Origin: Candidatus Saccharimonadota bacterium
GTDB taxonomy: Bacteria > Patescibacteriota > Saccharimonadia > Saccharimonadales > JAGQNJ01
Direction: 5' to 3'
Assembly (NCBI GenBank): GCA_036826295.1
Contig: DAISWO010000002.1
Span: forward strand, 77,963-141,962
Length of the DNA: 64,000 nt
A model generated the notes under the pieces. The model was not told the origin of the DNA. It did no database searches and worked only from the letters and a program-made list of their open reading frames with translations. This document shows, in pieces, positions 9,239 to 58,510 of this stretch. Position 1 is the stretch's first letter. Every line of letters starts with the position of its first letter. Made by a program: the position numbers and the translations under genes.

Positions 9239-9260
9239 AATATTTAAAGGGGAAACTATT

Positions 9261-9521
9261 ATGTCAGAACCAGAACTAATAACTGAAAGAATTACGGCAG
9301 GCTTGCCGGCTCGGATAGAATCAATACCAAACGGATTACTTAATGCTCTCGGACAAGGAGTAATCAAAAACTCTGATTTAGTGCCAAATATTGTAGCTCA
9401 GATAAGCAGCGGCAATCGCCCAGACGTTGATCCGCCGTTGAATATTCACGAACAAGTAGCCCGCACTAAGCACATAAATCAGTTAGCATCTAACTGCGTC
9501 GCGCAGTTTTTAACACAATAA
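9261..9521 (+). CDS. hypothetical protein (86 aa)
   Basis: ORF with AGGGGA-like SD 8 nt upstream; no motif. Confidence 0.4.
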   Translation: MSEPELITERITAGLPARIESIPNGLLNALGQGVIKNSDLVPNIVAQISSGNRPDVDPPLNIHEQVARTKHINQLASNCVAQFLTQ

Positions 9522-9540
9522 GAATTTAGGAGAGAATAAA

Positions 9541-13307: not shown

Positions 13308-14155
13308 CATACCCGTTAATAAATCCTCGGACTAAGTTTAAAGTTGATGCCTTCATAAAGAACCCGTCCCACGCACTAATAATATCTGGGCCTGTTGGCT
13401 CTGGAAAAACAAAATTAGCGGATTACATTGCTCAGGTTGCTCTCGATACCCAAGATATCAATACATATCCCTATCTACACAAAATAAATCCAATCGATGA
13501 CAAACTAGGGATTGAACAAATTCGGGAACTACAAAGTCTAGTTAAGCTTAAAATCCCAAGCAACAAAGACATTTCTCGAATACTAATAATCGGGAGCGCA
13601 GATATTATGGGTGACGAAGCCCAAAATACTCTACTAAAAACGCTTGAAGAACCCCCAACTGATACTATATTGATCCTACTTACAACCGACATGAATAAAC
13701 TGCTAGAAACAGTGAGATCTAGGGCAGTAACTATTGAAGTAAAAACGCCAACTAAAGGGCAACTTGTTGATCACTTTACCGGAAAAGGCTTTGACCAAAA
13801 GCAGGTCGAACGAGCAATGTTGTTAGGATCAAATAGGCCTGGAATAATTAGTGAGATTCTTGATGAAGATGAATCAGAGTACGAAAAATCGATTGTTGAA
13901 GCCAAGAATATTCTAGCAAGTTCTGAGTTTAATAGACTCATAAAAATAAACGAGCTAGCAAAAGACAAGCAAGTATCTTCCGAGATAATCGACTCATTAA
14001 TCTTAATTGCCCGCTCGGCAATGAAATCTTCCAGCAACCCTGAGCAAACAAAACGTTGGCACAAAATTCTCAAAAACGCTGATAAGGCAAAACAAAAAAT
14101 GGCGAAAAACGGCAACACTAAAATTATACTAACTGACTTGTTCTTGAACCTATAG
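13304..14155 (+). CDS. holB: DNA polymerase III delta-prime subunit
   Basis: GPVGSGKTKLA P-loop and NTLLKTLEEPPTDTILILLT clamp-loader motif; shorter than dnaX. Confidence 0.8.
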   Translation: MTYPLINPRTKFKVDAFIKNPSHALIISGPVGSGKTKLADYIAQVALDTQDINTYPYLHKINPIDDKLGIEQIRELQSLVKLKIPSNKDISRILIIGSADIMGDEAQNTLLKTLEEPPTDTILILLTTDMNKLLETVRSRAVTIEVKTPTKGQLVDHFTGKGFDQKQVERAMLLGSNRPGIISEILDEDESEYEKSIVEAKNILASSEFNRLIKINELAKDKQVSSEIIDSLILIARSAMKSSSNPEQTKRWHKILKNADKAKQKMAKNGNTKIILTDLFLNL

Positions 14156-14172
14156 TATAATTATACCCACTA

Positions 14173-14829
14173 ATGATAGAACTACTTTTAGTCGTCGGTT
14201 TTGGAATAATTGCCTACCGTAGCGCTACAATTCGTGACGAAGATTTGTCGCCGCTCCCTAGAAAGTTAAGTGATAAGCTTGGACAACTTTGGGGAATTGC
14301 CCATCAAGGGATGAAGGATAATAGTTTAATTAGAGCAGAAAAAGCTCTTTTGACTATCCTAAAGATTGACAAAAAAAATGCTGCCGCCTACAACCGTTTA
14401 GGCATCTTATACGCTAAGCAAAAAGAGTACAAAGATGCTATAGATTGCTTTGAGATTGCCTCGAGCATCGAAGTGAGTCCTTCGAGCCTGCATAACTTAG
14501 GATTAATCTACTATGAAACAGAGAATTACGAGAAGGCAGCAACTGCGTTCGAACAAGCACTAAAACTAGAGGATGACTTGGCGGCTAGGCATGTTGCATA
14601 TGCAAAAGTTCAAGAAAAACTAGGCAACAACAAGCTCATGTTTGCAGAGCTCGAGAAAGCTGTCGAGATTGAGCCGACTAAAGAATCGTTAAAATATCTA
14701 CACCAAGCTTATGAGAATAACGATATGCACGATGAAGCACGAAATATTCGCCGTAGACTAGATCGAGCCACAGTTTCAAAAACAAAACCAAAAAAACTAA
14801 CAAGACCAAAACGTAGAGTTGTTATTTAA
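14173..14829 (+). CDS. TPR-repeat protein with N-terminal TM helix
   Basis: Repeated A..YN.LG..Y....Y..A...FE.AL pattern (AAAYNRLGILYAKQKEYKDAIDCFEIA; HNLGLIYYETENYEKAATAFEQAL). Confidence 0.75.
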   Translation: MIELLLVVGFGIIAYRSATIRDEDLSPLPRKLSDKLGQLWGIAHQGMKDNSLIRAEKALLTILKIDKKNAAAYNRLGILYAKQKEYKDAIDCFEIASSIEVSPSSLHNLGLIYYETENYEKAATAFEQALKLEDDLAARHVAYAKVQEKLGNNKLMFAELEKAVEIEPTKESLKYLHQAYENNDMHDEARNIRRRLDRATVSKTKPKKLTRPKRRVVI

Positions 14830-14949
14830 CCCCTGTTCTGGTAAAATTTGACAGTACTTTTCTTTGATAATAAGAGGAAAAGAGCAGCCTGACAAAATGT
14901 ATTCCATTTTGCCAGCGCGATGAGAAAAACCTTTGGTTTGTCTCATTAG

Positions 14950-15026
14950 GCCGCCTTAGCTCAGTTGGTTAGAGCGACGGTTTTGTAAACCGTAGGTCGT
15001 CGGTTCGAATCCGACAGGCGGCTCCA
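14950..15026 (+). tRNA. tRNA-Thr (anticodon UGU), CCA encoded
   Basis: Hand-folded cloverleaf: GCCGCCT/AGGCGGC acceptor, anticodon arm ACGGT-TTTGTAA-ACCGT, T arm GTCGG-TTCGAAT-CCGAC; 77 nt. Confidence 0.93.
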
Positions 15027-15091
15027 CAGAAAGCATCATGACAGTTTACTGTTATTGTGCTTTCGAGGAAGCAACTGCAGCCCGAAGGGCT

Positions 15092-15104
15092 ACAGGCGGC
15101 TCCA
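15092..15104 (+). repeat. 13-nt direct duplicate of the tRNA-Thr 3' end (ACAGGCGGCTCCA) behind a mini-hairpin
   Basis: Identical to 15014-15026; preceded by GCAGCCC-gaa-GGGCT-a-C hairpin. Confidence 0.85.
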
Positions 15105-15173
15105 GTAATATTAAGCTTATTGCGTGAAAGCTTAATTGTGGGCTAGAGTTCATGTAGGTGTTTATGTGTTACC

Positions 15174-15225
15174 TAGCCTAACGAACCAACGAGCGGGTTT
15201 CCCGACTCGAGTGTTCGCTAGGCTA
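15174..15225. other. long imperfect hairpin in the tRNA-Thr/tRNA-Tyr spacer
   Basis: TAGCCTA-a-CGAAC-caa-CGAG..CTCG-agt-GTTCG-c-TAGGCTA read directly. Confidence 0.6.
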
Positions 15226-15302
15226 AGAGGAAGAATCGACTAGAGAGTGAAAGTAAATTATCAAACAATAATTTACTGGAAGTTGACCGTCGGTTCTGAC
15301 GA

Positions 15303-15388
15303 GCAGGGTTAGTGAAGCGGTCAAACACGGCAGACTGTAAATCTGCTGGCTTATGCCTTCGTAGGTTCGAATCCTACACCCTGCACCA
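15303..15388 (+). tRNA. tRNA-Tyr (anticodon GUA), long variable arm, CCA encoded
   Basis: GCAGGGT/ACCCTGC acceptor, GCAGA-CTGTAAA-TCTGC, variable arm TGGCTTATGCCTTC, GTAGG-TTCGAAT-CCTAC; 86 nt. Confidence 0.92.
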
Positions 15389-15431
15389 TCCTTCGTCGCT
15401 ATGTTTCTATACATAGCTATGAAGGATTTTT
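15388..15431 (+). terminator. tRNA-trailer hairpin/terminator (family copy 1)
   Basis: ATCCTTC-gtc-GCTATG..CATAGC-tat-GAAGGAT + TTTTT, starting in the CCA end. Confidence 0.7.
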
Positions 15432-15436
15432 AGTTT

Positions 15437-15488
15437 GTCGTAGGGTTCGAACCGACAGGCGAAAACAGTTGGGGGCTGTTTGAGTTAT
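15437..15488 (+). repeat. T-arm-like mini-element (tRNA-Thr 3'-half-like GTCG..GGTTCGAACCGACAGGCG + AAACAG/CTGTTT hairpin + GAGTTAT)
   Basis: Near-copy at 62061-62106, relatives at 61250-61290 and 56541-56598. Confidence 0.75.
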
Positions 15489-15533
15489 CCATATTTCTAG
15501 CGAGATACTTTAGTTCTCGAGCGGATTAATCAA

Positions 15534-15556
15534 TTCGAATCCTACACCCTGCACCA
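15534..15556 (+). repeat. 23-nt exact duplicate of the tRNA-Tyr 3' end (TTCGAATCCTACACCCTGCACCA)
   Basis: Identical to 15366-15388; followed by a weak hairpin and T-run (15565-15590). Confidence 0.9.
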
Positions 15557-15956
15557 AACTAAGAACCCGACTTGTTCAGGTTTTTTGTTTGGTTTAAGTT
15601 GAAGGTTTCAAAATTACGACGGGAGCCTTCGTAGGGGAGAACTGTCAGTAGCAGTTCGAACAGTCGGGAGCCCGGAGTATATTAATGCCCGAGCTGAGGC
15701 AGGGTCGCGGAAATTTACATATAGAAAATTGTTCGTGACCGAATCCTTTTAGGTTTCGAGCTCGCGGAACGTGACCGAATCCTACTGGTTACTGATCAAA
15801 GCCTAATTCTGTCATAGCAATTATTTCTATGCTCTAAATAGGGCTGATAAAGTTGACGAAAGTATATAATTAAACTATGTTTCAGTAGGAGGCTAATATA
15901 CTGAGCCCATAAGAAACCACTGCTTTGTAAAGTGTAAATATAACAAGGAGTTTATT

Positions 15957-16385
15957 ATGCCGAATAAACCTGGCGTTGGACTGGGAGTAATAATTGAGAA
16001 TGAGCAAGGACAAGTTTTTATCGGAAAAAGAACCGGTAGCCATGCTCCGCATTACTCAATACCGGGCGGTAAGCTAGAACTAGGAGAAACTTTCGAACAA
16101 GGGGCTATTCGAGAGATACAAGAAGAACACGGAATAACAATTGTTAAACCAAAAGTGATAGCAGTAACAAATAACTTAGAGACATATAGGGCAGAAGGAA
16201 TTCACTTTATTTCGGTTATTTTATTAGCAAAGGCGTTCGAAGGAGAACCAAGTATTTGTGAACCGGATAAATGCGAAGAGATTCTCTGGGCAGATCCAAC
16301 CAGCTTACCTCAACCACATTTTGATGCGAGCAGACTTGCAATCGAGTGCTATTTACAAGAAAAACCCTACGTTGGAATTAGATAG
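15957..16385 (+). CDS. NUDIX hydrolase
   Basis: Nudix box GGKLELGETFEQGAIREIQEEHGI. Confidence 0.88.
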   Translation: MPNKPGVGLGVIIENEQGQVFIGKRTGSHAPHYSIPGGKLELGETFEQGAIREIQEEHGITIVKPKVIAVTNNLETYRAEGIHFISVILLAKAFEGEPSICEPDKCEEILWADPTSLPQPHFDASRLAIECYLQEKPYVGIR

Positions 16386-25616: not shown

Positions 25617-26330
25617 TTGTCTGTATATAGCAACACTCAAATTAATCAAGCAATAAATTATGGGCATATTGTCTGCACGCCGTTCAACCCGAAGCACGTA
25701 GCGCATGCCAGCCTAGACGTGACTCTAGGATATTACTATTATCGAACAGAAAGAGCCGGTGACCACACAATCTACAATCCATTTGATGAAGCCGATGTCT
25801 CTAGATATTTTGAAGGCCCACACAAAGCTGTACCTCATAAAAAATGGTGTGATGACAATGGAGTAAAACTTCTCAAAGGAGTGCCCGCTGATCATCCAGT
25901 AATCCCACTAAAACCCGGAGAGAGAATCCTGGCTCATACACACGAATTTTTCGGCATAAAACCACCAGGCGCATATGAACTAAAATCTCGTTCAAGTTGG
26001 GGCCGAAACGGCATAGCAGTTTGTTTTGATGCTGGTTGGGTTGATCCAGGCTATATTAATCGTTTGACATTAGAAATCTTTAATCTCAACCACAAAGAGA
26101 TCGTACTGTTGCCCGTAGGAGAACGTATCGGTCAAGCAGTATTTCATGACACCGGACAAGTTGAAGGAAACTACGGTGAAGGTCGAGAAAACGGCTTTAG
26201 CGGAAAGTACCAAAGTGGCACAGATCTAGATACCCTAATAAAAACCTGGAAACCAGAAATGATGCTACCAAAAGCGTATAAAGACAAACGCTCGTTGCCA
26301 GTAAAAATCAAAGGACTAAAAGGTGACTGA
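25617..26330 (+). CDS. dcd: dCTP deaminase/dUTPase-superfamily protein (TTG start)
   Basis: SLDVTLG.., SRSSWGRNGIAVCFDAGWVDPGYINRLTLEIFNLN, GERIGQAVF motifs of the Dcd family. Confidence 0.78.
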   Translation: MSVYSNTQINQAINYGHIVCTPFNPKHVAHASLDVTLGYYYYRTERAGDHTIYNPFDEADVSRYFEGPHKAVPHKKWCDDNGVKLLKGVPADHPVIPLKPGERILAHTHEFFGIKPPGAYELKSRSSWGRNGIAVCFDAGWVDPGYINRLTLEIFNLNHKEIVLLPVGERIGQAVFHDTGQVEGNYGEGRENGFSGKYQSGTDLDTLIKTWKPEMMLPKAYKDKRSLPVKIKGLKGD

Positions 26331-28665
26331 CATCCCACAAAACTTTGGTGGGGAAGAATCTACTAATTTAGCTAAAGGCATTTTTATCGTTATCGAGGGC
26401 ACAGACGGCTCTGGTAAGAGTACGCAATATCAGCTACTTAAAGAACATTTAGAAAGTATGGGCCACGACATTGTCCCAATACACTTCCCGCGCTACGACC
26501 AACCATCGAGTTATTTTATCAGGCAATATTTAAGCGGAGCATATGGCATGGGCGACGAAATTAATCCGTATTCTGGGTCAATATTCTACGCGCTGGATCG
26601 ATACGAGGCATCTAATGAAATACGCCAAGCACTTAGCGAGGGTAAAATTGTCCTTTGCGATAGATATGTAGGCTCGAATATGGCTCATCAAGGTACGAAG
26701 TTTGATAACCCAGCCGAGCGTAGAGGTTATTTTATTTGGCTGGACAATCTAGAATTTGGAACACTCGGCATCCCTCGTCCAGATATTAATTTTGTACTGA
26801 ATAATCCATACGACGTGATAACGTCTCGGCTAAAAAATAAACAAGAATCAAGCACACATATCAAGAAAAAAGACGTACACGAAGTGGACCCCAATCACAT
26901 CAAACGATCAATTGATGTATATCGAGACATGTGCGAATTATTCCCTAAAGACTTTGTACGCATTGACTGCGCAAGAAATGACGTTGTATTGCCAGCCGAA
27001 GAAGTCCATTCACTACTCTGGGAAAAGATTACTCCAAGATTACCTGTAATCAATCAGCCTGTTCCTGACAACGAAGATCAAGACTACATCACAAAAAACG
27101 AAAACGGCTCGTTCTCTATTACTAACGCCGGAAAAGAATTCCTTAACGATGCTATTACAAATACAGATGATAATGTCTATGCATTCACTGGCGAAAAGCT
27201 AACACCAATAACCGCAGCAGCAGCTATGGCCAGACTGAGCCGTCGAGGCGATGATATGCGCGTAACAATATTAGATGAGTTCGCAAAAAACCTTGGCAAG
27301 GACGAAGGGTTACTTAAACGCGTGATTACTGCGTACGGAGACGACTCTGTCCAACAACTTGTCGGCCAACACTTGGTGGTAGAAGAAGCGTCAAATCTAC
27401 TAACAAAAAAACTTGAGTGGGGAAGATTGGCTTCATATCTAGAACAATCAACACGTTACATTTATTTTGATCAAAAGGATAAAAACGGTCGATACAAATA
27501 TTTTACCCCGCCAGAGCTAGATGAGTTAACAAAACAAGTTTATGAACAAACGATGGATGAACTCTTTGATAATTATTCAAAACTTGCTAGTGATTTGACG
27601 GAATATGTACGAAATAAATCTACGGTTGCCGAGTCAGAACGCGATATCGCTTGGAAGGGCGCAACCCGTGCCCAAGCTTGCGATGCAATTCGTGCAGTAC
27701 TTCCAGTAGCTACAAAATCAACTGTAGGAATTTATGCGTCAGGACAAGCACTTGAAAGCCTAATAATGCATTTACAAGCTGACGAATTAGCAGAAGCAAG
27801 AACAACTGGCGATAAAATCTTAGCTGAATCTCGAAAAGTATTGCCAGCATTTTTAGAGCGCGCCGACAAGCCAGAACGAGGTGGAGCCAACATTGCTTAC
27901 AAAGCTAATACGGCAAGAAAAGTAAAAAAGCTTGCTTTAGATTACCTGCCTAACAATAACGTTGGCTCTAATGATGATGTGGTTCTGACTGATTATTGGC
28001 CAAAGAACGAGTTCGACCTAGTTGCCGACATGTTATACGATCACAGCTCGTTATCGCTTGAGGATATTCGTAGTGAGGTTTCTGACTGGCCATATGAGCG
28101 TAAAAAAGAGGTTTTTGACGCGTATGTGGGCGAAAGACTAAATCGGCGTCATAAACCCGGTAGAGCCCTAGAAAAGGCTCATTACAGCTGGGATCTTGTG
28201 TGTGATTACGGGATTTTCCGCGATTTACAGCGTCATCGTATTGTAGATGATCTAGAGTGGCAACTATTAACACCAAGATATGGTTATGAGATTCCAGAAC
28301 TTGTAGAAAAAGCCGGTTTGAGTGACCTTTTCGAACAATGCTTTGATTTAAGCCTAAAATTGTACAGCGACATGCAACAAGCTGGATATCCCCTTGAGGC
28401 CCAGTACGCAACACTCCTTGGTCACAAAATGCGCTGGAAAGTTACTTATAACGCAAGAGAAGCATTTCATTTACACGAACTGCGTACTGCGCCTCAAGGT
28501 CACCCTGGATACCGAAAGTTAGTTAAGCAAATGCACGACAAATTATGCGAGGTACACCCATCAATTGGCGTAGCCATGAAGTTTGTTAATAAAGATGAAG
28601 ATCCCGAGCTAACCAGACTAGCAGCTGAAAGATATACTCAATTTAAACTTAAAGACCTTCAGTAG
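26323..28665 (+). CDS. fusion protein: N-terminal thymidylate kinase + C-terminal extended ThyX-type (flavin-dependent) thymidylate synthase region
   Basis: Tmk P-loop IVIEGTDGSGKSTQ and DRYVGSNMAHQ; C-terminal ThyX RHR motif FRDLQRHRIVD plus HLHELRTAPQGHPGYR. Confidence 0.72.
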   Translation: MTDIPQNFGGEESTNLAKGIFIVIEGTDGSGKSTQYQLLKEHLESMGHDIVPIHFPRYDQPSSYFIRQYLSGAYGMGDEINPYSGSIFYALDRYEASNEIRQALSEGKIVLCDRYVGSNMAHQGTKFDNPAERRGYFIWLDNLEFGTLGIPRPDINFVLNNPYDVITSRLKNKQESSTHIKKKDVHEVDPNHIKRSIDVYRDMCELFPKDFVRIDCARNDVVLPAEEVHSLLWEKITPRLPVINQPVPDNEDQDYITKNENGSFSITNAGKEFLNDAITNTDDNVYAFTGEKLTPITAAAAMARLSRRGDDMRVTILDEFAKNLGKDEGLLKRVITAYGDDSVQQLVGQHLVVEEASNLLTKKLEWGRLASYLEQSTRYIYFDQKDKNGRYKYFTPPELDELTKQVYEQTMDELFDNYSKLASDLTEYVRNKSTVAESERDIAWKGATRAQACDAIRAVLPVATKSTVGIYASGQALESLIMHLQADELAEARTTGDKILAESRKVLPAFLERADKPERGGANIAYKANTARKVKKLALDYLPNNNVGSNDDVVLTDYWPKNEFDLVADMLYDHSSLSLEDIRSEVSDWPYERKKEVFDAYVGERLNRRHKPGRALEKAHYSWDLVCDYGIFRDLQRHRIVDDLEWQLLTPRYGYEIPELVEKAGLSDLFEQCFDLSLKLYSDMQQAGYPLEAQYATLLGHKMRWKVTYNAREAFHLHELRTAPQGHPGYRKLVKQMHDKLCEVHPSIGVAMKFVNKDEDPELTRLAAERYTQFKLKDLQ

Positions 28666-46482: not shown

Positions 46483-46760
46483 TGCAAGCTAGAAGCTTGC
46501 GTAGAATCATACTTTTATCTCCAGCAATAAAAGTATGCAAAAGTGCCGCCCCGGCTCAAGCCACATGATGTAAATTGTTGTTTGTTTGCACCGTGCCTGC
46601 GGAACGCAAGCGATCTGATTCATTGATTTTGAAGTATGGAATCAGATTAGTCCTCGGCATTGATTCGGTACAAATCAAACAAAATTCGCTCAGTGTTTGA
46701 GAGGGGGTATAACAACAACTCAGGAAAAAGCCGATGCCCAGTTTAGACAGCTGGGTGCTG
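46483..46760 (+). repeat. structured repeat SR-A
   Basis: P1 hairpin CATACTTTTAT/ATAAAAGTATG 46508-46537. AAGTGCCGCCCCGGCTCAAGCCAC 46541-46564. Core CCTGCGGAACGCAAGCG 46596-46612. Hairpin ATCTGATTC/GAATCAGAT 46613-46647. TAGTCCTCGGC 46648-46658. Tail TCAGGAAAAAGCCGATGCCCA 46720-46740. Confidence 0.85.
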
Positions 46761-49290: not shown

Positions 49291-49480
49291 CATACTTTTC
49301 TCAGTAGCAAGAAAAGTATGCAAAAGTGCCATGCCGACTGTTTGTTCTTGATATAACTTCTAGTCAATGCCTACAACAGCCTGTGGAACGACAAGCGCCC
49401 CGAATTATTGTTTTTGAGTATGAATTCGGGGATGTCCTCGGCTAACTAGTTGTAGGATTGACGGTGTTATTCAGGGACAA
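49291..49480 (+). repeat. structured repeat SR-E
   Basis: P1 CATACTTTTCT/AGAAAAGTATG 49291-49320. Helix CCTACAAC 49370-49377 / GTTGTAGG 49449-49456. Core CCTGTGGAACGACAAGCG. Hairpin CCCCGAATT 49398-49406 / AATTCGGGG 49423-49431. ATGTCCTCGGC. Confidence 0.85.
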
Positions 49481-49559: not shown

Positions 49560-50423
49560 ATGGGGCAGAAAATTCTTGAAGGTATTATAAAAAAAGCATA
49601 TTTTTCGGATAAGGGTTTTGTGCTTTTTAAAGATAATTCTATTGAATTACTCCAGAAAATCCCTGAAAACAGTATTGATATGATTTTTGCGGATCCTCCA
49701 TATAATCTATCAAATGGTGGTTTTACTGTACACGCCGGCAAAATGGTAAGTGTGAATAAAGGCGAATGGGATAAGAGTAAGGGGCTAAAAGCAGATTTTG
49801 ATTTTCATATACGATGGCTCGAGGAATGCTATAGGGTTCTAAAGCCAAATGGCACTATTTGGGTTAGCGGTACGTACCATTCTATATATCAGTGTGGATA
49901 CGCACTACAACTGCTTGGTTATAAAATTTTGAATGACATCGCATGGTTTAAACCAAATGCGTCCCCAAACCTAAGCTGTAGATATTTTACTGCCAGCCAC
50001 GAGACTTTACTGTGGGCAAGAAAAGACCCGAAGGGAAAGCATACTTTCAATTACGAAGTGATGAAAGGCTGGACAGATAACTACAAAAAACCGTTCAAAT
50101 CACCTACAACTGGCAAACAAGAATATATTGAGATTATGCATGAAGCAGGGAAGCAGATGCGCTCCGTGTGGGCCATAGGTACACCAAAACGAGAAGAAAA
50201 GACATTCGGTAAACATCCAACCCAGAAACCCGTAGCACTACTAGAGCGGGTCGTACTCTCTTCTACTAACAAAGGCGACGTAATCTTGGACCCCTTTACT
50301 GGCAGTTCTACAACAGGGATAGTAGCAGCAAAAAACAACAGGAAATTTATTGGAATAGATCTAGACAAAGAATACCTAGAAGTTTCAATAAAGAGATATA
50401 ATCTACTGAAAGCCGTGAAATGA
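49560..50423 (+). CDS. beta-class N6-adenine DNA methyltransferase, DpnA (M2.DpnII)-like, probable GATC specificity
   Basis: DMIFADPPYNLSNGG (motif IV) precedes ILDPFTGSSTTG (motif I). Long collinear similarity to my recollection of DpnA (SPNLSCRYFT, GKHPTQKP). Confidence 0.88.
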   Translation: MGQKILEGIIKKAYFSDKGFVLFKDNSIELLQKIPENSIDMIFADPPYNLSNGGFTVHAGKMVSVNKGEWDKSKGLKADFDFHIRWLEECYRVLKPNGTIWVSGTYHSIYQCGYALQLLGYKILNDIAWFKPNASPNLSCRYFTASHETLLWARKDPKGKHTFNYEVMKGWTDNYKKPFKSPTTGKQEYIEIMHEAGKQMRSVWAIGTPKREEKTFGKHPTQKPVALLERVVLSSTNKGDVILDPFTGSSTTGIVAAKNNRKFIGIDLDKEYLEVSIKRYNLLKAVK

Positions 50424-51280
50424 TTGATAAAGATTTTGATAAACTGGTTTCAACTTTCAAGAGTTCAATTAAAACCTGGGACTATTTTGTAAATTGGGAC
50501 AAAGTTTATTTAAATTCATCGGAACTTGAAATCGCCCTAAACAAGCTAAATTATTTACTCGGCAAGGAAAAGCTCGAAGAAGAGTTTATAAAATTATATG
50601 CTGATAACTCAGATATAGTTAAAGCACTGCCAGCACTATTGGCAATTAGAGAAAAGAAAATTGAGATTTTTGACAAAGCAACTAAAGATTCAGAATTTTT
50701 TAATTTCAATGATCAATCCGCTGGCGCAAAAAAATATTTCGAATTTATTGAGAAATCTGGACTTGCCAAACTTTTTAAAGAAGATGGGGTCAAGAATCTT
50801 GTCGACTATGTATTAGGGGTTGAGGTAGGGCTTGATAGCAATGGCAGAAAAAATAGAGGCGGTACGTTAATGGAAGACATTGTCGGCACTCTCTTAGCGG
50901 ATTTTTGCAAAGATAATGACTTACAACTAATGTCGCAAGCTACTGCAAAGAAAGTTAAAAATATTTGGGATATTAATATAAAAGTTGATAAATCTGCGCG
51001 AAGTTTCGATTTTGCAGTTTATAACCCCAGAAGTAATAATATAAAGTTATTTGAAGTAAATTTCTATAATGGGGGAGGCTCTAAGCTCAAAGCCGTTTGC
51101 GGTGAGTTTCGTAGTTTGTACGATGAGTTAAAGTCTCAAAGCATTGATTTTGTTTGGATTACAGACGGTTTGGGGTGGCATACTACTAAAAAACCACTTG
51201 AAGAAACTTATAATCATAACGAATTTGTCTTTAACCTTACCATGATCGAAAACAATATATTACAGCGTATGGAGTGGTAG
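50420..51280 (+). CDS. type II restriction endonuclease, DpnII/MboI family (GATC)
   Basis: LVDYVLGVEVGLDSNGRKNRGG, EVNFYNGGGSKL, WITDGLGW match remembered R.DpnII blocks; ATGA overlap with the methylase gene. Confidence 0.85.
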   Translation: MIDKDFDKLVSTFKSSIKTWDYFVNWDKVYLNSSELEIALNKLNYLLGKEKLEEEFIKLYADNSDIVKALPALLAIREKKIEIFDKATKDSEFFNFNDQSAGAKKYFEFIEKSGLAKLFKEDGVKNLVDYVLGVEVGLDSNGRKNRGGTLMEDIVGTLLADFCKDNDLQLMSQATAKKVKNIWDINIKVDKSARSFDFAVYNPRSNNIKLFEVNFYNGGGSKLKAVCGEFRSLYDELKSQSIDFVWITDGLGWHTTKKPLEETYNHNEFVFNLTMIENNILQRMEW

Positions 51281-51506
51281 GGGACGGATACTATAAATTA
51301 ACAATACAATTGCCCTTGTATTCTATAAGTTAGTATATTTATCGTTATTCAGAACACATTAGAATGTATATGGAAATGAGAGCGTGGCTATCCACACATA
51401 AAACTGGGACAGTCTATTCAAAACTTCCTATTCATGAATATTGCACATATGAGTCGTTCGTTTGCAACTGGTCATTTTTATGTTCATGTAATACAATTAG
51501 AAAGAT

Positions 51507-53507
51507 ATGTTGTCAGATCTAGACATCAAGCTAACCTATAGCTCTGCATATGATGACATTGTTAACGATTTTTTTATTCCAACTTTAAAACAATCGATTT
51601 CATATGATAGAGTCGCAGGGTATTTTTCTCCGTCAGTGTTAGCACTCGCTTCGGTTGGCATTGCTAGTTTCGTAAAAGAGAAAAAAGGAAAAATTAGAAT
51701 TATATGCAGTGTGAATATTAGCTCTAAGCTTTGCGATGCGATAATGGAAGACGACGGCTCGAAAATATCATTAGACGAAATGTCGGTAACAGAGCTAACT
51801 TCTGAACTCGAGAAAGACTATTATAGACTGTTTGTAAAAATGTTAAATGCAGGAATTATAGAATTAAAGATTGTTGCTATGGATAATGCGTTTAATATTT
51901 TTCATTCAAAAATTGGCATATTAAAAGATTCAGCTGGAAATGCCGTTTCTTTTGTCGGTTCGGTTAATGAAACATCAAACGCGTGGCAAGGAAATATAGA
52001 GGATTATCCAACTTTTACATCCTGGCGTCCTGGCGGGCAAGAATATATAGATAAATATATGTCAATATTTGAAGCATACTGGAATGGGGACATACCTAGA
52101 TCTACCACATTCAGCCTCAGTAAATCAGTGATTAACCGCATCCAAGAAATTTCAGGTGCTAACCAATTTGAGACCACTGAATTAGTTAAAAAAATCGAGA
52201 GCAAGTTGGTTGAAGAGAAAAAGAAACCCTATAAATATCAATTGAAAGCAATCGAGAACTGGAAAAATGCAAATTATAACGGGATATTTGCAATGGCAAC
52301 AGGGACCGGAAAAACATTTACGGCACTATGCGGATTAAAAGATTATTTCTTATCATCCGACGTCAATGTTGCTATCGTTGTCGTGCCACTAGCGCAACTA
52401 GTGTATCAATGGGTGGAGGAGATTAAAGACCATGAATTTTTCGCTAAAGCAAATATAATTATGGCACCATACGCTAGAGACTGGAAAAAAACAATAAAAG
52501 ATGAGCTATTCTACAATAGCGGGGGCAATAATTTAATCGTGGTCACTACTTATTCAACGTTTTTCACGGAAGATTTCATAAAAATCTTTAAGAGCTACGG
52601 TAAGACAACAATGCTGATAGCTGATGAGGTACACAACGTTGCTGGTGGCGCTAGACTTGAACATTCTGACTTTATATCAGAATTTCATTCAAAGTTGGGG
52701 TTAAGTGCGACACCGTTAAGCATTTGGTCAGAAGATAATTCTAATCAAATGATTGATTTGTTTGGGGGTGTGGTATATGAATACAGCTTAGAAAAGGCAT
52801 TGAAAAAGAATGATCTTACAAATTTTGATTATGAATACTTTGAAGTTCCACTGACTCAGCAGGAGTTTGAAGAGTATGTAGACCTATCGAAAAAAATATA
52901 TCCAAAAACAAACGAAGACAAAAAATTATCTGGAACAAGTGCAGAAATAAAAAGAGCAAACATAAAGAAGAATGCAGAGCAAAAAGTTTTAATGCTCGAA
53001 AAAAAACTTGCAACGCATAGTTTTGACATTAAAAAAACTTTGATTTACGCAAACGATCAAATTCAATTAGATAAAATACAAAAAATGATGGATGTCCATG
53101 GTCTAAAAACAAGTAGATTTACCGGTGAAGAGAAAAACCCAGTATTAAGAAAAAGCATTATCGAAAACCTCGAAGATGAGATATATGATGCAGTAGTTGC
53201 AATCAAATGTCTAGATGAAGGAGTAGATATTCGTTCAGCCCAAACCGCCTACTTAATTTCGAATAATACGGAGCCAAGGGAGTACACTCAACGATTAGGG
53301 AGAGTACTTAGGAAGTGTGAAGGTAAGAAGCTATCTTATGTAGTGGATTTTGTTGTTGTGCCCCCCGAGTCGTTTCGAGACAATAAATACGGAAAGCAAT
53401 TAGTTAAAAATGAACTAAAAAGAGTCGGTTTCTTCTCTGATCTTGCATCGAATAGTTCGGATGTTGCGGGTCATTTAATTGATACTAAACTAAAATACGG
53501 TATATAA
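51507..53507 (+). CDS. HKD(PLD)-family nuclease fused to SF2 (ResIII/DEAH-type) helicase
   Basis: FHSKIGILKD..GSVNETSNAW; helicase motifs AMATGTGKT, IADEVHN, SATP, QRLGRVLR. Confidence 0.85.
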   Translation: MLSDLDIKLTYSSAYDDIVNDFFIPTLKQSISYDRVAGYFSPSVLALASVGIASFVKEKKGKIRIICSVNISSKLCDAIMEDDGSKISLDEMSVTELTSELEKDYYRLFVKMLNAGIIELKIVAMDNAFNIFHSKIGILKDSAGNAVSFVGSVNETSNAWQGNIEDYPTFTSWRPGGQEYIDKYMSIFEAYWNGDIPRSTTFSLSKSVINRIQEISGANQFETTELVKKIESKLVEEKKKPYKYQLKAIENWKNANYNGIFAMATGTGKTFTALCGLKDYFLSSDVNVAIVVVPLAQLVYQWVEEIKDHEFFAKANIIMAPYARDWKKTIKDELFYNSGGNNLIVVTTYSTFFTEDFIKIFKSYGKTTMLIADEVHNVAGGARLEHSDFISEFHSKLGLSATPLSIWSEDNSNQMIDLFGGVVYEYSLEKALKKNDLTNFDYEYFEVPLTQQEFEEYVDLSKKIYPKTNEDKKLSGTSAEIKRANIKKNAEQKVLMLEKKLATHSFDIKKTLIYANDQIQLDKIQKMMDVHGLKTSRFTGEEKNPVLRKSIIENLEDEIYDAVVAIKCLDEGVDIRSAQTAYLISNNTEPREYTQRLGRVLRKCEGKKLSYVVDFVVVPPESFRDNKYGKQLVKNELKRVGFFSDLASNSSDVAGHLIDTKLKYGI

Positions 53508-53529
53508 TGCAAGATATTAAGGTTAGGAT

Positions 53530-53712
53530 ATGAGCACAACGATCAATAAGACAATACTTGCACAGATTGACTCCTCTAATTATTCGGACGAGGTAAAGTA
53601 CCTTGTTACTCAATTTATCCAGAAGGAAAAAGAACATTTTGAATCTCATCTAGATTTTGCAAAAGAACTTGATAAATTAATTAAAGTTGTCACAGATGAA
53701 AAGTTTAAATAG
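53530..53712 (+). CDS. small hypothetical protein (60 aa) of the defence operon
   Basis: ORF with AGGTTAGGA SD-like sequence; 3' end overlaps the ATPase start. Confidence 0.45.
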   Translation: MSTTINKTILAQIDSSNYSDEVKYLVTQFIQKEKEHFESHLDFAKELDKLIKVVTDEKFK

Positions 53713-55597
53713 CATACGAATAAAAAACTTTATGTGTTACGAAGATCAAACTATTGATTTTGAAAAAGATATTGGTCTATATTTGATTACTGGCGATAAC
53801 AACGCTGGTAAATCAACGATTTTTAACGCCATTAGCTGGTGCTTTTTCGAGAAAACTCCCTTCAGAAAACCAGGAGACGATATAGATATTGAGTTCTCGG
53901 GTAAATTAAAAGGTGCACCTACAGAAATCGAAGTACGCTTCACGCTGGACAACAATAAATTTTCAATATTTAGAAAGCTCGGCGGGTTGAATGGTTCGAA
54001 GCAAGTAGTGTCAAGTGTTAGTAAGAGCGGCGGTCTACAACCCATTTATTTTCATGCCGACGATTTAATATCGAAATTTTTACCAGAAAATATTAAGCAT
54101 TTATTTATGTTTGATGGTGAGATGATTAAGAATTTGTTTGACGATGATACAAGAGAAGGATTAAAAAACAGCATAAAATACATTAGCGACATAAACGTGC
54201 TAGAGCGTGCGAACCGTCATATAAGTAGTGAAGCTACCAAACTTTTAAAAAAAACCACCACAGATCGGAAGCAGTCTGAGCAGATCGATCAATTAGAGTC
54301 GACAATAGATAACAACAACACAAGAATTGAAGATTTTAAGAAAAAAGTCTCAGAGAAAAATAAAAGGATAAATGAGAATAAACAACGCTTGGATGATTTG
54401 GACGAACGGATAGAGAAAAACAAAGGTTATGAAGATCTATTGGCTATAAAAAATCGGAGCAACAACGAACGCAAAAAATCCGAAGAGTTAATAGAACTTG
54501 AAGAAAAAGATATGTTCAAGATGCTGACAGAGATTACACCCTTCATAATGGTTTACGACAAAATGTCTAAATTAGTAGGCACAATTGACGAAGAGATTGA
54601 CTTACACAATCTCCCAGCACCTATCGAACCATCTGAGCTCAAAAAGTTTGTTAAAGATGGGAAATGTGTTTGTGGGACGAAGGTAGACGAAAAGATAGAA
54701 AAACATTTTTTGAAACTGATCGACGAGTATTCGAAAGTTAATGAGAAGCAATATATTGTAGACATCTCAAAAGACTTCTGGTCTATTACGAATTCCATAA
54801 AGGATCTTACGAGTAAAATTGAGGACTCTCGCTCTAGGATAGCGAAAAATCGGCAATATAAAAACGAGCAAAATCTAGAGTTTGATATGGCGGTAGAAAA
54901 GCTAGATAAAATCCAAAGCATAGATCCCGAAGCTGACAAAGCATCCAGGAGAGATTTAATCGACTTGAATAATAAGTTAACTGAAGAAGTTACTGATTTG
55001 AAAAGAGATATTGTGCAGCTCGAAGCCGATGTGAGAAATGACACTATTACGAGAGATAACATACGACGAGATTTAGCGAAAGCCGAAGGAAAGAATTCTA
55101 AAATTAACCTACTACAAGAAGCAATGCAACTTATTGAGGAAACCATCAAAAAGACAACTCATGACACTAAGAATTTAATCGAAAGAAAGTTTAATGACAC
55201 ATTTTTAGAGCTGTCCGGAACAACAAATTTCACCGGGATAAAAATGGAGGACGACTATTCAATAATGCTAAAAACGGCTGATGGTTCGTACAGGGGGCCA
55301 TCTGGATTTGGGACTGGTTATCATAAAATGCTAGGCCTTTCTATTGTCTTTGCCTTGAGCGAACACCTAGATAATTCAGATTTTCCAATAATGGTTGACA
55401 ACCCTTATGATTCAATCGCTCCAGAGCATAAGCCGACGATTAATAGTTACCTAAAAAAACTCTCGAAAAAGAAACAGGTAGTAGTGACTGCCCTTGATGA
55501 AGAAGAGATGCTTGAAGGATTTAGCAAGGATGATGTAATGCGTCATTTTTTTATATCTCAGAAAAATAATGTTTCTAGTGTGGAGATAAAAAAATGA
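53696..55597 (+). CDS. SMC/Rad50/DndD-like ABC ATPase with long coiled coil (ATG 53696; TTG 53687 alternative)
   Basis: IRIKNFMCYEDQTIDF..ITGDNNAGKST Walker A. About 300 aa K/E/L-rich. CVCG in the middle. C-terminal GFGTGYHKMLGLSIVFAL..FPIMVDNPYDSI (signature/Walker B-like). Confidence 0.8.
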   Translation: MKSLNSIRIKNFMCYEDQTIDFEKDIGLYLITGDNNAGKSTIFNAISWCFFEKTPFRKPGDDIDIEFSGKLKGAPTEIEVRFTLDNNKFSIFRKLGGLNGSKQVVSSVSKSGGLQPIYFHADDLISKFLPENIKHLFMFDGEMIKNLFDDDTREGLKNSIKYISDINVLERANRHISSEATKLLKKTTTDRKQSEQIDQLESTIDNNNTRIEDFKKKVSEKNKRINENKQRLDDLDERIEKNKGYEDLLAIKNRSNNERKKSEELIELEEKDMFKMLTEITPFIMVYDKMSKLVGTIDEEIDLHNLPAPIEPSELKKFVKDGKCVCGTKVDEKIEKHFLKLIDEYSKVNEKQYIVDISKDFWSITNSIKDLTSKIEDSRSRIAKNRQYKNEQNLEFDMAVEKLDKIQSIDPEADKASRRDLIDLNNKLTEEVTDLKRDIVQLEADVRNDTITRDNIRRDLAKAEGKNSKINLLQEAMQLIEETIKKTTHDTKNLIERKFNDTFLELSGTTNFTGIKMEDDYSIMLKTADGSYRGPSGFGTGYHKMLGLSIVFALSEHLDNSDFPIMVDNPYDSIAPEHKPTINSYLKKLSKKKQVVVTALDEEEMLEGFSKDDVMRHFFISQKNNVSSVEIKK

Positions 55598-56058
55598 TAG
55601 ATTCTGAAAATTGGCCAGCAGTAAAAACATCGAAAGAAGTTCACGCGCAAATCGAAGATCTTCAAAATTCCGAAGGGTTTTTCCGAGGGATGAACCAGAT
55701 AGAGATTATGAAACTTGGAGCAGCTCATACTATTAAGAATGGACTGTCGGCTCCAGCAGAACATAAGAGAGAAACCGATATATCAGCACCTAAATATGTA
55801 GCGAGCAAAGAAACTATGTATGTAAACCTACGTATGCTTATGCTGTTATGTTACTCTACCGATTCTGGTATCAAAATTAGCGATGATTTTGAAAGAATTG
55901 ATATTGTTAAAACTTTTGAAAGATTTGCCGAAGCAGGTATTAGGGACCTGCATGATAAATACATAATTGGGAGCGATACACCCGAAGACTTTCTCAGACT
56001 TGCTTTTGAAGATGCACAATCGGTGAAACCAGCAATAGAAGAAAAGTTATCGAATTAG
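55594..56058 (+). CDS. small protein, tentatively DndE-like (DUF1832-type) DNA-binding protein
   Basis: VKTSKEVHAQIEDLQNSEGFF..IMKLGAAHTI resembles the DndE N-terminal pattern as I remember it; ATGA-coupled to the ATPase. Confidence 0.4.
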   Translation: MIDSENWPAVKTSKEVHAQIEDLQNSEGFFRGMNQIEIMKLGAAHTIKNGLSAPAEHKRETDISAPKYVASKETMYVNLRMLMLLCYSTDSGIKISDDFERIDIVKTFERFAEAGIRDLHDKYIIGSDTPEDFLRLAFEDAQSVKPAIEEKLSN

Positions 56059-56115
56059 GTTAGGAGGTCAGGGGGGGTTTGAGGGGCGTCCTCTAACGGA
56101 TAGGGAGAATTTGAA

Positions 56116-56427
56116 ATGTATGAGAATTTGAAGGATAGACTAAAAAAAGATTTTGATGTTGATCTGGACATATCAGGCGGTAATGGTAAAAGCTTAGCTG
56201 ATCCAATCGTAATCAACCAAAGTATTAGAGACTGTGTTGGTACAGAATATTATATTGTTAAGTTAATTTTTCAAGCAATGGGCAAAGAGTGGAAAACCGT
56301 AAAACAAACTATAGTTACTGCAGCTGACAAGAAAATTGATCAACTTACCATTGAAGTAACTGATGTTGACGGGGCTAAACACGAAACAGATTTTTATTTC
56401 GACATAACCAAGCATATTAAAAATTAA
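56116..56427 (+). CDS. hypothetical protein (103 aa), last gene of the defence cassette
   Basis: ORF with GGGAGA SD; no motif. Confidence 0.45.
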   Translation: MYENLKDRLKKDFDVDLDISGGNGKSLADPIVINQSIRDCVGTEYYIVKLIFQAMGKEWKTVKQTIVTAADKKIDQLTIEVTDVDGAKHETDFYFDITKHIKN

Positions 56428-56539
56428 TGGGGTTTGAAATACTTTTTGGTTGTATTGATGCTGATAAAAAATCAATACTACCCTGGGGTTTGAAATACTT
56501 TTTGGTTGTATTGATGCTGATAAAAAATCAATACTACCC
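56428..56539 (+). repeat. perfect tandem duplication of a 56-nt unit, followed by a diverged partial third unit starting at 56540
   Basis: TGGGGTTTGAAATACTTTTTGGTTGTATTGATGCTGATAAAAAATCAATACTACCC x2; each unit contains hairpin GTATTGAT/ATCAATAC. Confidence 0.92.
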
Positions 56540-56836
56540 TGGGATTTGAAAGGTGTCTCTGAATTTTCCTGAGCAGAGGTTGTGCCTGTTTGAGTTATTT
56601 TCCCCTCTCAAACACTGACGTAGCGAATTTGTTTTTGGTTGAATCATTTTCGAGGACCACTCCCGAACCATACAATAGAATAATGTTCGGGAGCGCTTTG
56701 CGTTCCGCAGAAACGATCAAAAACTAATTTGTGACCATCACGTGGCTTGAGCCGGGGCGGCACTTTGCCATACTTTCTTGCTGACTGAGAAAGTATGAAA
56801 AATCCGCAAACCGTAGGATCGTAAGAAAAGTATTTT
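56540..56836 (-). repeat. structured repeat SR-B (inverted relative to SR-A, C, D, E)
   Basis: Reverse complement carries P1 CATACTTTCT/AGAAAGTATG (56769-56797). The 24-nt block at 56742-56765 is identical to SR-A. CTGCGGAACGCAAAGCG (56694-56710). Hairpin CTCCCGAAC/GTTCGGGAG. GTCCTCG. Confidence 0.88.
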
Positions 56837-56867
56837 GATATAGCGGAGTTCAGACCTCTAAATAAGT

Positions 56868-56873
56868 TATACT
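56868..56873 (+). promoter_or_regulatory. -10 box TATACT 6 nt before ATG 56880
   Basis: read directly. Confidence 0.4.
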
Positions 56874-56879
56874 TGCACT

Positions 56880-57572
56880 ATGGATAACAATATTCGTCTT
56901 AAAGAATTGAAAGAGTTATCATCAATCGAAATACCGGCTGGCACTAATAGACTTCAAACCGCTCTTTTAATTGCTGATTTTGCCCATAGTGCTTTTTCGC
57001 ACAACGGCGACAGCAAACCCAGCTCATCTGACCCTGTGACTATACTGACAGAAGCACAGGCAGGTTCAAGCTTCAGATGCGTAGAATACAGTCACCTAGC
57101 CGCATGGCTTATGGTCGCCCACGGGATTGATGTCCGGACGTTGAACATTATGAACAAAGACGTCGAAACAATGGAATATGGCGCCGGTCATGTCGTTGTT
57201 GAATTTTATGAAGGCAAACAACACGGTTGGGTCATGGCGGATATCCAGGCGGGTGTTGTCGCCAGACAAGGAGGCGTGTTGCAATCAGCTTTTGAGCTAA
57301 GAGATTCTTTAGATGAAGCAAGCATAGAAGATTTTAGAGGGAATAAATTCGTCGCAGCGAAAGGGATGTTTGGCGGCAATTACAAAGAATGGCTCCGACC
57401 GTACCTATATTTTATAGACAGGTCAAAAAAACTTAATTACGAATACTCTGACGACTCAGAGCCGCATTTAATACTGGTGCCTGACGGCGGTAAGCCACCC
57501 AAGTTTTTTCAGCGGAATCATAAGCTCAATCTTATTGTTACGTCGCCTGATGTTTTTTATAAAGTAAAATAA
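56880..57572 (+). CDS. transglutaminase-like (Cys-His-Asp) domain protein
   Basis: SFRCVEYSHLAAWLMVAHGIDVR .. GAGHVVVEFY .. GWVMADIQ spacing typical of the TGase core. Confidence 0.55.
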   Translation: MDNNIRLKELKELSSIEIPAGTNRLQTALLIADFAHSAFSHNGDSKPSSSDPVTILTEAQAGSSFRCVEYSHLAAWLMVAHGIDVRTLNIMNKDVETMEYGAGHVVVEFYEGKQHGWVMADIQAGVVARQGGVLQSAFELRDSLDEASIEDFRGNKFVAAKGMFGGNYKEWLRPYLYFIDRSKKLNYEYSDDSEPHLILVPDGGKPPKFFQRNHKLNLIVTSPDVFYKVK

Positions 57573-57595
57573 ATATAGTATGGAGCGGAAGGTCT

Positions 57596-58096
57596 TTGGT
57601 CATAGTTTGCAGTTTTCCTGTGCATCTGGTTTTCCTAAGCAGATGTTCTATTTGTATTTACTACCACAATCCTACTGCCAGTGAACTGGCAATCGGTTGT
57701 CGCCACGCCTCGACTCGGGCAATAATTTGCGCCGGGCTTCCGGCCTTGCAAACTGCCACAGGCAGTTCTCACCTTATCAAAAAACAGAGGGAATGGGAGG
57801 TTTATTGTCCGAATGAATGCTGAGGACTAATCCGATTCCATACAATGGAATAATGAATCGGATCGCTTGCGTTCCACAAGCACGGACTAGAAACATCCCA
57901 AGACCATCTATCTTTTTGATAGGGCGGCTTTTTTGCATACTTTGGTAGCTGCAGACAAAAGTATGAAAATATATTTCAAAGCTTTGTTTTTTGTTTCGCA
58001 GGGCACCTTTGCCATTCCGCTAGACAGCAGATTCTTACTGACTGAGAAAGTATGTGAAATTCGCGAACCGTAGGATCACAAGAAAAATGTTTTGTA
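57596..58096 (-). repeat. structured repeat SR-F (composite: full core plus a second partial copy of the P1-side end)
   Basis: Reverse complement has CTTGTGGAACGCAAGCG + ATCCGATTC/GAATCGGAT + TAGTCCTCAGC (57819-57880). P1 at 57946-57975. 58040-58096 repeats SR-B 56780-56836. Confidence 0.8.
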
Positions 58097-58219
58097 GTTT
58101 TGGGCTGGTGTAAGAGTTCTGTGCTCTAGACGTTTGTCTGTACCTGTTCTATGGCACTATCGTCTTTGATATCAGTACGCATAATTGTTGGTAAGACCGA
58201 AACAGGCTAGAATTAAGCC

Positions 58220-58510
58220 ATGAAGAAACTCGTAATTATATCGTTTATAGTAGCGGCGATAATCTTCTTGTTACTACCATCACGCAGCGAAGAACTTTAC
58301 AGATGCCCCGACGGGTCTACTGTTTGTCCAGCCTTATACTCGTCTGAGACTAAACAATTCACCGGTATGACTCTTTACGGATTATTGACACCAGATAATG
58401 AAGCCGACGACCAAACCTACAGCGATTTAGCTAGAAATTCACTGATCTTTATTCCACCTTTTATTCTTCTAAGTGTTTATCTATACAACAAAAGAAAAAC
58501 CCACAAATAA
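58220..58510 (+). CDS. small membrane protein (96 aa)
   Basis: N- and C-terminal TM helices. Confidence 0.45.
   Translation: MKKLVIISFIVAAIIFLLLPSRSEELYRCPDGSTVCPALYSSETKQFTGMTLYGLLTPDNEADDQTYSDLARNSLIFIPPFILLSVYLYNKRKTHK

Follow-up and report, generated by a model that had tools for sequence, protein, structure and literature searches.

The closest described relative of the genes reported here is PbeABCD, a four-gene antiviral system from Haloterrigena jeotgali A29, where it occurs with DNA phosphorothioate (PT) modification genes as DndCDEA-PbeABCD (Xiong et al. 2019, Nat Commun 10:1688; PMC6459918). Its genes encode a phospholipase D (PLD)-helicase, a protein of 66 aa, an ATPase of the AAA_23/SMC-like kind and a protein of 152 aa. 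None of the four is dispensable; protection against virus SNJ1 is about 10^4-fold and depends on phosphorothioation by DndCDEA, and replication of the viral DNA is blocked with no visible cleavage (PMC6459918). The same study classed 320 of 553 pbeAC loci (58%) as solitary, with a methylase within 10 kb of 155 of the 320, and suggested first that solitary pbeAC is inactive, while also raising a pairing with the methylase. Here we analyse a 64-kb stretch of a Candidatus Saccharimonadota genome (GenBank assembly GCA_036826295.1, contig DAISWO010000002.1, positions 77,963 to 141,962), called the window below, in which a very divergent pbeABCD operon lies downstream of a DpnII-type restriction–modification (R-M) pair. 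We consider whether methylation of GATC might link the two.

A later study from the Aravind group (NAR 2024; PMC10853773) described PbeA as an HKD endoDNase joined to a superfamily 2 (SF2) helicase, PbeB as a rapidly evolving small protein, PbeC as a 'CxC' ABC ATPase with a zinc hook, in a sister clade of DndD, and PbeD as a cognate of DndE. In that work PbeC and PbeD were taken to be a DNA-scanning pair of ABC ATPase and DNA binder, PbeA a translocating HKD nuclease like the R subunit of enzymes of types I and III, and PbeB a regulator. A suicide or trigger model was proposed, with the small protein as negative regulator (PMC10853773).

A divergent pbeABCD operon

Positions 51507-56058 of the window almost certainly hold a four-gene pbeABCD operon, that is, a CxC ABC ATPase/DndE-cognate anti-invader system (coordinates in Table 1). 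An earlier note on this DNA had described five co-directional open reading frames (ORF1 to ORF5) with a 17-nt overlap and an ATGA overlap at 55594-55597, and had quoted the motifs FHSKIGILKD..GSVNETSNAW, AMATGTGKT, IADEVHN, SATP, QRLGRVLR, GDNNAGKST, CVCG and FPIMVDNPYDSI. All of these are present, the ORFs on the + strand and the motifs in their translations. The start that it gave to the block, 51364, belongs to a 52-aa ORF (51364-51522) that lies in the 226-nt spacer, overlaps the start of pbeA and is probably spurious. The pbe genes are tightly packed, with a 22-nt gap between pbeA and pbeB and overlaps of 17 nt between pbeB and pbeC (counted from the ATG at 53696) and 4 nt between pbeC and pbeD. 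PbeC has 636 aa when read from a TTG start at 53687 and 633 aa from the ATG at 53696.

ORF1 matched the PADLOC PbeA model PDLC02707 with E 1e-180 over almost its entire length (residues 2-653, profile positions 2-668 of 672). Pfam detected PLDc_2, ResIII and Helicase_C domains, in agreement with PADLOC and with the earlier reading of ORF1 as an HKD nuclease joined to an SF2 helicase. Across 32 aligned homologues, the HKD residues H133, K135, D141 and GS-N-E are invariant and present in the window protein, and the helicase residues of Walker A (G266-T270), D373/E374/H376, SAT at 400-402 and Q595/R596/G598/R599 are likewise invariant. The protein thus has HxK(x)4D..GSxN together with helicase motifs I, II, III and VI, as in HKD-SF2 fusions of about 650-750 aa. 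A search of 5.8 billion database proteins gave roughly 900 PbeA homologues at E<=1e-10, of which the nearest is at most 42% identical. A scan of genome contigs for related loci with this single protein found no relatives, because it is too divergent, and the related Pbe loci discussed below were collected by a contig scan with an alignment of PbeA homologues.

ORF3 matched the PADLOC PbeC model at full length with E 8e-47, ahead of DndD (2e-32) and LmuB (5e-23), and gave Pfam matches to AAA_23 and SMC_N. The sequence C327-V-C329 (numbered from the TTG start) falls in two Cys columns that are conserved in at least 80% of 48 PbeC sequences from the collected loci; among 18 DndD paralogues of these loci, a single one has CxC at the hook position. 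The ATPase of DndD/Rad50 style with a central Cys hook that the earlier note saw in ORF3 is therefore PbeC, a CxC-clade ABC ATPase with a predicted zinc hook. The same note had called the signature and Walker B region divergent. This is indeed how the region appears, but Walker A and a 'hhhD-P' Walker B are kept across the PbeC clade, so the apparent divergence is typical of the family.

ORF4 is more difficult to place. Its direct NCBIfam match to TIGR04062 (dnd_assoc_4, the PbeD family) spans the full length but is below the cut-off (E 0.023), it had no PHROGs match, a word-index search returned only ORF4 itself and an exhaustive HMMER search only four weak relatives. An AlphaFold2 model from the four-sequence alignment had a mean pLDDT of 50 and was unusable. 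A hidden Markov model (HMM) iterated from ORF4 over about 8,800 ORFs from 83 loci gave 42 matches, each of them the ORF directly after pbeC, so that the family has this position in 40 loci besides the window, and 23 of 32 of its members matched TIGR04062, the best with E 1.7e-33. The position, the size of about 150 aa and these matches identify ORF4 as PbeD, of the dnd_assoc_4 family. The link to DndE itself is modestly supported: hhalign aligned the ORF4 family with a DndE profile over 112 columns (probability 69%, E 4e-5), and a profile search of the PDB, started from 32 PbeD sequences, missed DndE and gave only chance coiled-coil matches. The earlier description of ORF4 as a DndE-like small protein stands to that extent.

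ORF2 had no significant family match in PADLOC, Pfam or NCBIfam, and a single borderline match to an unannotated family in PHROGs (phrog_36286, E 0.0089). In each of the ten close relatives, an ORF of 55-64 aa likewise lies between pbeA and pbeC, and these small ORFs align collinearly at 14-30% identity. By position and size, ORF2 is PbeB, a small (about 55-66 aa) and variable protein.

The A-B-C-D order is kept in about 50 loci across Bacteria and Archaea, a synteny check that the earlier note had proposed, and the window genes form the same co-directional, packed operon. Their sizes (666, 60, 636 and 154 aa), their order and the central CVCG match the published PbeABCD. Since all structural features of PbeABCD are present, we conclude that the module is a very divergent member of a known system and not a new system. 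The earlier note was right in seeing a defence module here. It went astray in calling the module undescribed, a reading it had staked on the genes belonging to no known system, because the PADLOC matches of PbeA and PbeC and the published architecture together cover the module. PADLOC-type tools would already flag it via these two proteins. The locus records PbeABCD, in very divergent form, in a genome of the candidate phyla radiation (CPR; Saccharibacteria).

Absence of phosphorothioate genes

We scanned all six frames of the 64 kb with HMMs built from the Dnd/Ssp genes of other loci (cysteine desulfurase, DndC/SspD, a 368-aa PAPS-reductase-like family, DUF4007/SspB, a 1150-aa SspC-like family, DndB and DndE) and with one for Dam. 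Neither a Dnd/Ssp modification gene nor a Dam match was found at E<=1; apart from PbeC, the window encodes no ATPase of DndD type. The scan agrees with the earlier statement that the DNA has no canonical dnd or ssp cluster and no sulfur-transfer gene, and the locus lacks the adjacent PT genes of DndCDEA-PbeABCD sensu Xiong 2019. Among 56 loci with full-length PbeA, 39 carry one or more genes of Dnd or Ssp type within 10 kb, which places the window in the minority 'solitary' class. A neighbour-joining tree of PbeA puts the window together with L002 and L003, and L004, L005 and L008 form the sister group; PT genes are absent from all of these loci, and the PT-less loci form a branch of their own. 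PT genes were also absent from the 8-10 kb around each of the ten closest relatives.

Two loci of the sister branch carry unusual upstream genes. In L008, from a Prevotella metagenome-assembled genome, a 704-aa protein with a weak radical-SAM match (7885-9999) overlaps the start of pbeA, and L004 has a B12-binding-domain protein upstream (493-1812). Either could be a different modification partner.

Elsewhere, pbeABCD directly follows an Ssp-type cluster in many genomes of Firmicutes, Methanobrevibacter and Bacteroidota (L006, L007, L009, L011, L013, L016, L024, L039 and L046; Bacteroidota loci L032-L037, L041, L044 and L049). The cluster consists of a PAPS-reductase-like gene, DUF4007 (SspB), a 1150-aa protein and a cysteine desulfurase; the 1150-aa protein has no Pfam match and is SspC-like by position. 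Pbe is thus paired with PT genes of both the Ssp and the Dnd type.

Adenine methylases beside pbe genes

The earlier note had placed a DpnII-type R-M pair upstream of the pbe genes, and the family searches agree. The methylase matched Pfam N6_N4_Mtase (E 3.5e-63) and PADLOC MTase_II (E 1.8e-96), and its best solved relatives are CcrM and DpnA-type enzymes. The restriction endonuclease matched Pfam DpnII (E 2.6e-90, positions 1-277 of 278) and PADLOC REase_II (E 1.2e-93). The two genes overlap by 4 nt. We identify them as a DpnII endonuclease with its cognate adenine methylase, for which family membership predicts GATC specificity; as a member of this family, the window methylase should also methylate GATC.

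The ten nearest relatives, at 35-42% identity in PbeA, have a related arrangement. In eight of them (L002, L003, L084-L086, L089, L094 and L095) a D12-class methylase gene lies directly upstream of pbeA, and its stop codon usually overlaps the pbeA start. The methylases encoded there exceed the Dam cut-off of TIGR00571 (257-271 bits versus 115). Among solved structures, the one closest to them is that of DpnM from the DpnII system (2DPM, E 2e-52), and E. coli Dam comes next. Six of seven methylases compared share NGMYREN..YNIPFG..DPPY; in L084 the first motif reads NGIRRIN. These upstream D12 methylases look GATC-specific by family. Pairwise identities between the methylases track those between the corresponding PbeA proteins (r = 0.76), although the pairs are not independent. 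No restriction endonuclease family was seen in the 8-10 kb around the eight loci, where many neighbouring genes are unannotated, and this leaves Pbe as the obvious partner of the methylase. The five-gene Dam-pbeABCD cassette is the norm in the PT-less branch (one example lies at 216.6-222.2 kb of contig CAZPAW010000002.1, assembly GCA_964584895.1), and the DpnII-type R-M pair occupies the methylase slot of the window.

A PT-less relative, L087, also abuts a complete type II R-M system, the second pbeABCD to do so besides that of the window. Its pbe genes adjoin, in back-to-back arrangement, the genes for two C5 methylases and an NgoFVII-type endonuclease (12714-15978).

The literature on Pbe-type systems that we located names only cytosine methylases or unspecified 'MTases' alongside them. 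As far as we found, Dam-pbeABCD cassettes are apparently not in print as such, but 'solitary pbeAC with a nearby MTase' has been described. The link between Dam and the operon in this branch may thus be under-described, while the general idea of a methylase pairing is already published.

A possible shared GATC mark

On this evidence we propose that Pbe in the window is paired with GATC adenine methylation, with a probability of roughly 0.45. The pairing is plausible because PT genes are absent, eight of ten relatives have Dam directly upstream of pbeA and the corresponding slot in the window holds a DpnII R-M pair; we also count for it that the R-M and pbe genes share a low-GC island, that the window groups in the PbeA tree with the Dam-bearing L002 and L003, that methylase and PbeA identities track each other in the relatives, and that Xiong et al. 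found many solitary pbeAC loci near a methylase. The self mark in this subclade would be N6-adenine methylation at GATC, G(m6A)TC, and not phosphorothioate. The neighbouring DpnII-type methylase would write it here, as Dam would write the same mark in the relatives, and DpnII and Pbe would be two restriction arms that both read it. From what is described for the family, PbeC may dimerise through its CxC zinc hook and form, with the DNA binder PbeD, an ATP-driven complex that scans DNA. PbeA, as effector, would block replication of the invading DNA or cut the invader, and the small, variable PbeB may regulate the system. If the pairing is true, one methylation licenses two arms, a type II endonuclease and an ABC-ATPase-guided HKD helicase. 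A tentative extension, which we regard as possible, is that the Pbe subclade swapped PT for GATC N6-adenine methylation and that the dedicated methylase of its relatives has been replaced here by the DpnII R-M pair.

Several points weigh against this explanation of the locus. No experiment ties any Pbe system to methylation, and the only one tested is PT-dependent (PMC6459918). The window methylase has its own restriction endonuclease and is parted from pbeA by the gene for that endonuclease and the 226-nt spacer, so the adjacency may merely reflect clustering in a defence island. Among the relatives, L088 has a complete pbeABCD and no methylase within 8 kb, and L087 has its pbeABCD beside a C5-cytosine R-M system. 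The GATC specificity of both kinds of methylase is a prediction from family membership. GATC is only mildly under-represented in the window, at 0.81 of the Markov expectation, a ratio that is uninformative as a sign of GATC restriction. The coverage of the genome is the 64-kb window. Finally, the NCBIfam equivalog cut-offs of TIGR04095 (dnd_restrict_1), TIGR03185 (DndD) and TIGR04062 are not reached, the sub-threshold matches to the first two corresponding to PbeA and PbeC.

Of the competing explanations, the one that survives best, which we nevertheless judge unlikely, is that pbeABCD acts independently of any modification, by abortive infection or trigger sensing, and is unrelated to the R-M pair that neighbours it in a defence island. 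A phage cue would then be detected by PbeB or PbeCD and lead to release of the HKD nuclease, in line with the suicide or trigger model of the Aravind group, in which the small protein is a negative regulator (PMC10853773). This explanation would account for L088, which has neither a methylase nor a PT gene within 8 kb of its complete pbeABCD, for the PT-less loci L004, L005, L008, L034 and L048, which have no methylase beside pbeA, and for a window methylase that already has its own endonuclease. It fits poorly with a DpnM-like methylase that eight of the ten close relatives carry as part of the operon, with stop and start codons that overlap, and that co-varies with PbeA, and with the dependence of the tested Pbe system on modification (PMC6459918).

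It is improbable that the locus is a conventional PT-dependent Pbe whose dnd or ssp genes are encoded in another part of the genome, beyond the window. DndCDEA is required by the one Pbe that has been characterised by experiment (PMC6459918), most sampled Pbe loci (the 39 of 56 above) have a Dnd- or Ssp-type gene within 10 kb, and the examined part of the genome is 64 kb. However, that part extends 51 kb upstream and 8 kb downstream of the operon with no PT gene, the 8-10 kb around each of the ten closest relatives is free of PT genes, and the PT-less loci form their own PbeA branch.

We give very little credence to an inactive remnant, a solitary pbe operon that has lost its modification partner. 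Such solitary pbeAC loci are common and have been suggested to be inactive (PMC6459918), but the four ORFs here are intact and tightly packed or overlapping, and the HKD, helicase, Walker A, Walker B and CxC motifs are all conserved. The PT-less clade moreover keeps intact four-gene cassettes at only 35-42% identity, which argues for long-term purifying selection.

The undescribed five-gene defence system of the earlier note is refuted: although ORF2, ORF4 and ORF5 have no direct family match at curated thresholds and identity to the nearest PbeA homologue is only 42%, the models for PbeA and PbeC match at full length, architecture and sizes are as published, and the conserved unit is four genes, ORF5 being absent from related Pbe loci.

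The window and its relatives define a coherent PT-less branch with a DpnM-like Dam methylase gene built into the operon, which makes the 2019 speculation that Pbe may pair with base methylation instead of PT directly testable. A test of this pairing could also help to settle the dispute over whether Pbe cleaves DNA or only blocks its replication.

Comparison with other systems

Haloterrigena PbeABCD and the window operon have the same four genes in the same order, co-directional and overlapping, and the same proteins: an HKD nuclease with SF2 helicase of about 700 aa, a protein of about 60 aa, a CxC ABC ATPase of about 640 aa and a dnd_assoc_4 protein of about 150 aa. The window differs in that it has no adjacent dndCDEA or sspABCD and lies beside a DpnII-type R-M pair, in that its host is a CPR bacterium (Saccharibacteria) and in its identity of at most 42% to any PbeA. 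The Dam-pbeABCD relatives have the closest PbeA, PbeC and PbeD proteins and share with the window the lack of PT genes and a co-oriented adenine methylase gene upstream of pbeA. In the relatives this is a single DpnM-like D12 methylase gene directly upstream of and coupled to pbeA, whereas the window has a beta-class N6_N4 methylase, a DpnII endonuclease and the 226-nt spacer.

The locus resembles the Dnd and Ssp PT systems in that PbeC belongs to the sister clade of DndD and PbeD is a cognate of DndE. It differs from DndBCDE-DndFGH and from SspABCD-SspE/SspFGH in having no DndA/B/C/E, SspA-D, DndFGH or SspE, and from DndFGH systems in that its effector is an HKD helicase. We rejected a canonical Dnd or Ssp system because there was no match to DndC/SspD, DndA/SspA, DndFGH or SspE. 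PbeA is a ResIII-type translocase like the HsdR and Res subunits of type I and type III restriction enzymes; a type I or III R-M system was rejected because there is no HsdM/S or Mod and the nuclease is of the HKD and not the PD-(D/E)xK type. The SMC/Rad50-like coiled-coil ATPase PbeC resembles LmuB of Lamassu, which was rejected because the LmuB model scored 5e-23 against 8e-47 for PbeC and because PADLOC found no LmuA or LmuC among the proteins of the Pbe block and the R-M pair. DISARM (DrmD), Dpd (DpdE), Hachiman (HamB), Shango (SngC) and the PLD-helicase anti-phage protein NF042964 were rejected on score and gene content.

The surrounding island and other features

Table 1. Coordinates of the R-M pair, the pbe genes and ORF5 in the window.
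Feature	Description	Position	Strand	Basis
Methylase	N6/N4 DNA methyltransferase, beta-class; M subunit of the DpnII-type (predicted GATC) type II R-M pair	49560..50423	+	Pfam/PADLOC
Endonuclease	DpnII-family restriction endonuclease	50420..51280	+	Pfam DpnII, PADLOC REase_II
Spacer	AT-rich, 226 nt, from R-M pair to pbeA; possible site of a pbe promoter	51281..51506	.	GC 0.32
PbeA (ORF1)	666 aa; HKD (PLD-type) nuclease and SF2 (ResIII/DEAD) helicase-translocase; predicted effector	51507..53507	+	
PbeB (ORF2)	60 aa; fast-evolving small protein between pbeA and pbeC	53530..53712	+	
PbeC (ORF3)	CxC-clade ABC ATPase; Walker A, coiled coil with predicted C-x-C zinc hook, Walker B Asp	53696..55597	+	
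PbeD (ORF4)	154 aa; dnd_assoc_4 family; predicted DndE-cognate small DNA-binding protein	55594..56058	+	
ORF5	103 aa; outside the Pbe system	56116..56427	+	

The earlier impression that this block is more AT-rich is borne out. GC content is 0.34-0.38 at 50-57 kb versus 0.41 in the remaining window (0.39 in the methylase gene and 0.34 in the DpnII endonuclease gene), and GC at third codon positions is 0.27-0.37 in the R-M, pbe and ORF5 genes versus 0.42-0.50 in the flanking genes. As all of these genes share the low third-position values, the block at 49.5-56.5 kb looks like one acquired island. No recombinase or integrase was found beside it. The larger genes in the rest of the window are housekeeping genes, and the 297-aa gene adjoining tRNA-Gln encodes a VanY-type peptidase. 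Two promoter-like sites in the spacer (51310-51339 and 51469-51497) match at 9 of 12 positions, a frequency no higher than in shuffled sequence; since counts of promoter and terminator sites equal those of shuffled sequence, the operon boundaries are set from gene spacing alone.

ORF5 is not a component of the Pbe system. A search of about 65 related Pbe loci found no homologue, and the gene that follows pbeD varies from locus to locus. ORF5 had no family match in PADLOC, Pfam or NCBIfam, and neither it nor the flanking genes matched PHROGs. The collection of 5.8 billion proteins holds only two homologues, 93% and 88% identical, at L090 3669-3983 and L091 1824-2138 on short Saccharibacteria-like contigs, where the gene order is GmrSD, a 222-aa gene, the ORF5 homologue and TspO. 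At the DNA level, ORF5 is 91% identical to the homologous copy, versus 69% for the neighbouring TspO gene. In the window, the island is bordered by TspO on its upstream side and by ORF5 on its downstream side, so a variable defence hot-spot seems to be marked by the two genes; ORF5 may be a marker of such a hot-spot beside TspO, or may travel with it.

A perfect 56-nt tandem duplication (56428-56539) begins directly 3' of the ORF5 stop and is followed by a partial third copy; each unit holds an 8-bp hairpin (GTATTGAT..ATCAATAC) and has no Rfam match. A family of intergenic palindromes, CATACTTTT-N-AAAAGTATG, occurs at 46508-46537, 49291-49320, 56769-56797 and about 57936-57966, following the VanY, TspO, ORF5-region and transglutaminase-like genes, and the copies at 49291 and 56769 flank the low-GC R-M and Pbe block. 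They may be terminators, REP-like elements or marks of the island boundary. A 63-nt direct repeat lies at 56775-56837 and 58032-58094. An Rfam search of the whole window, with a more permissive scan of 56380-58260, detected only tRNAs and an L10 leader, elsewhere in the window. Away from the island, a 780-aa ORF (26323-28665) encodes a single protein with both a thymidylate kinase and a ThyX (Thy1) domain.

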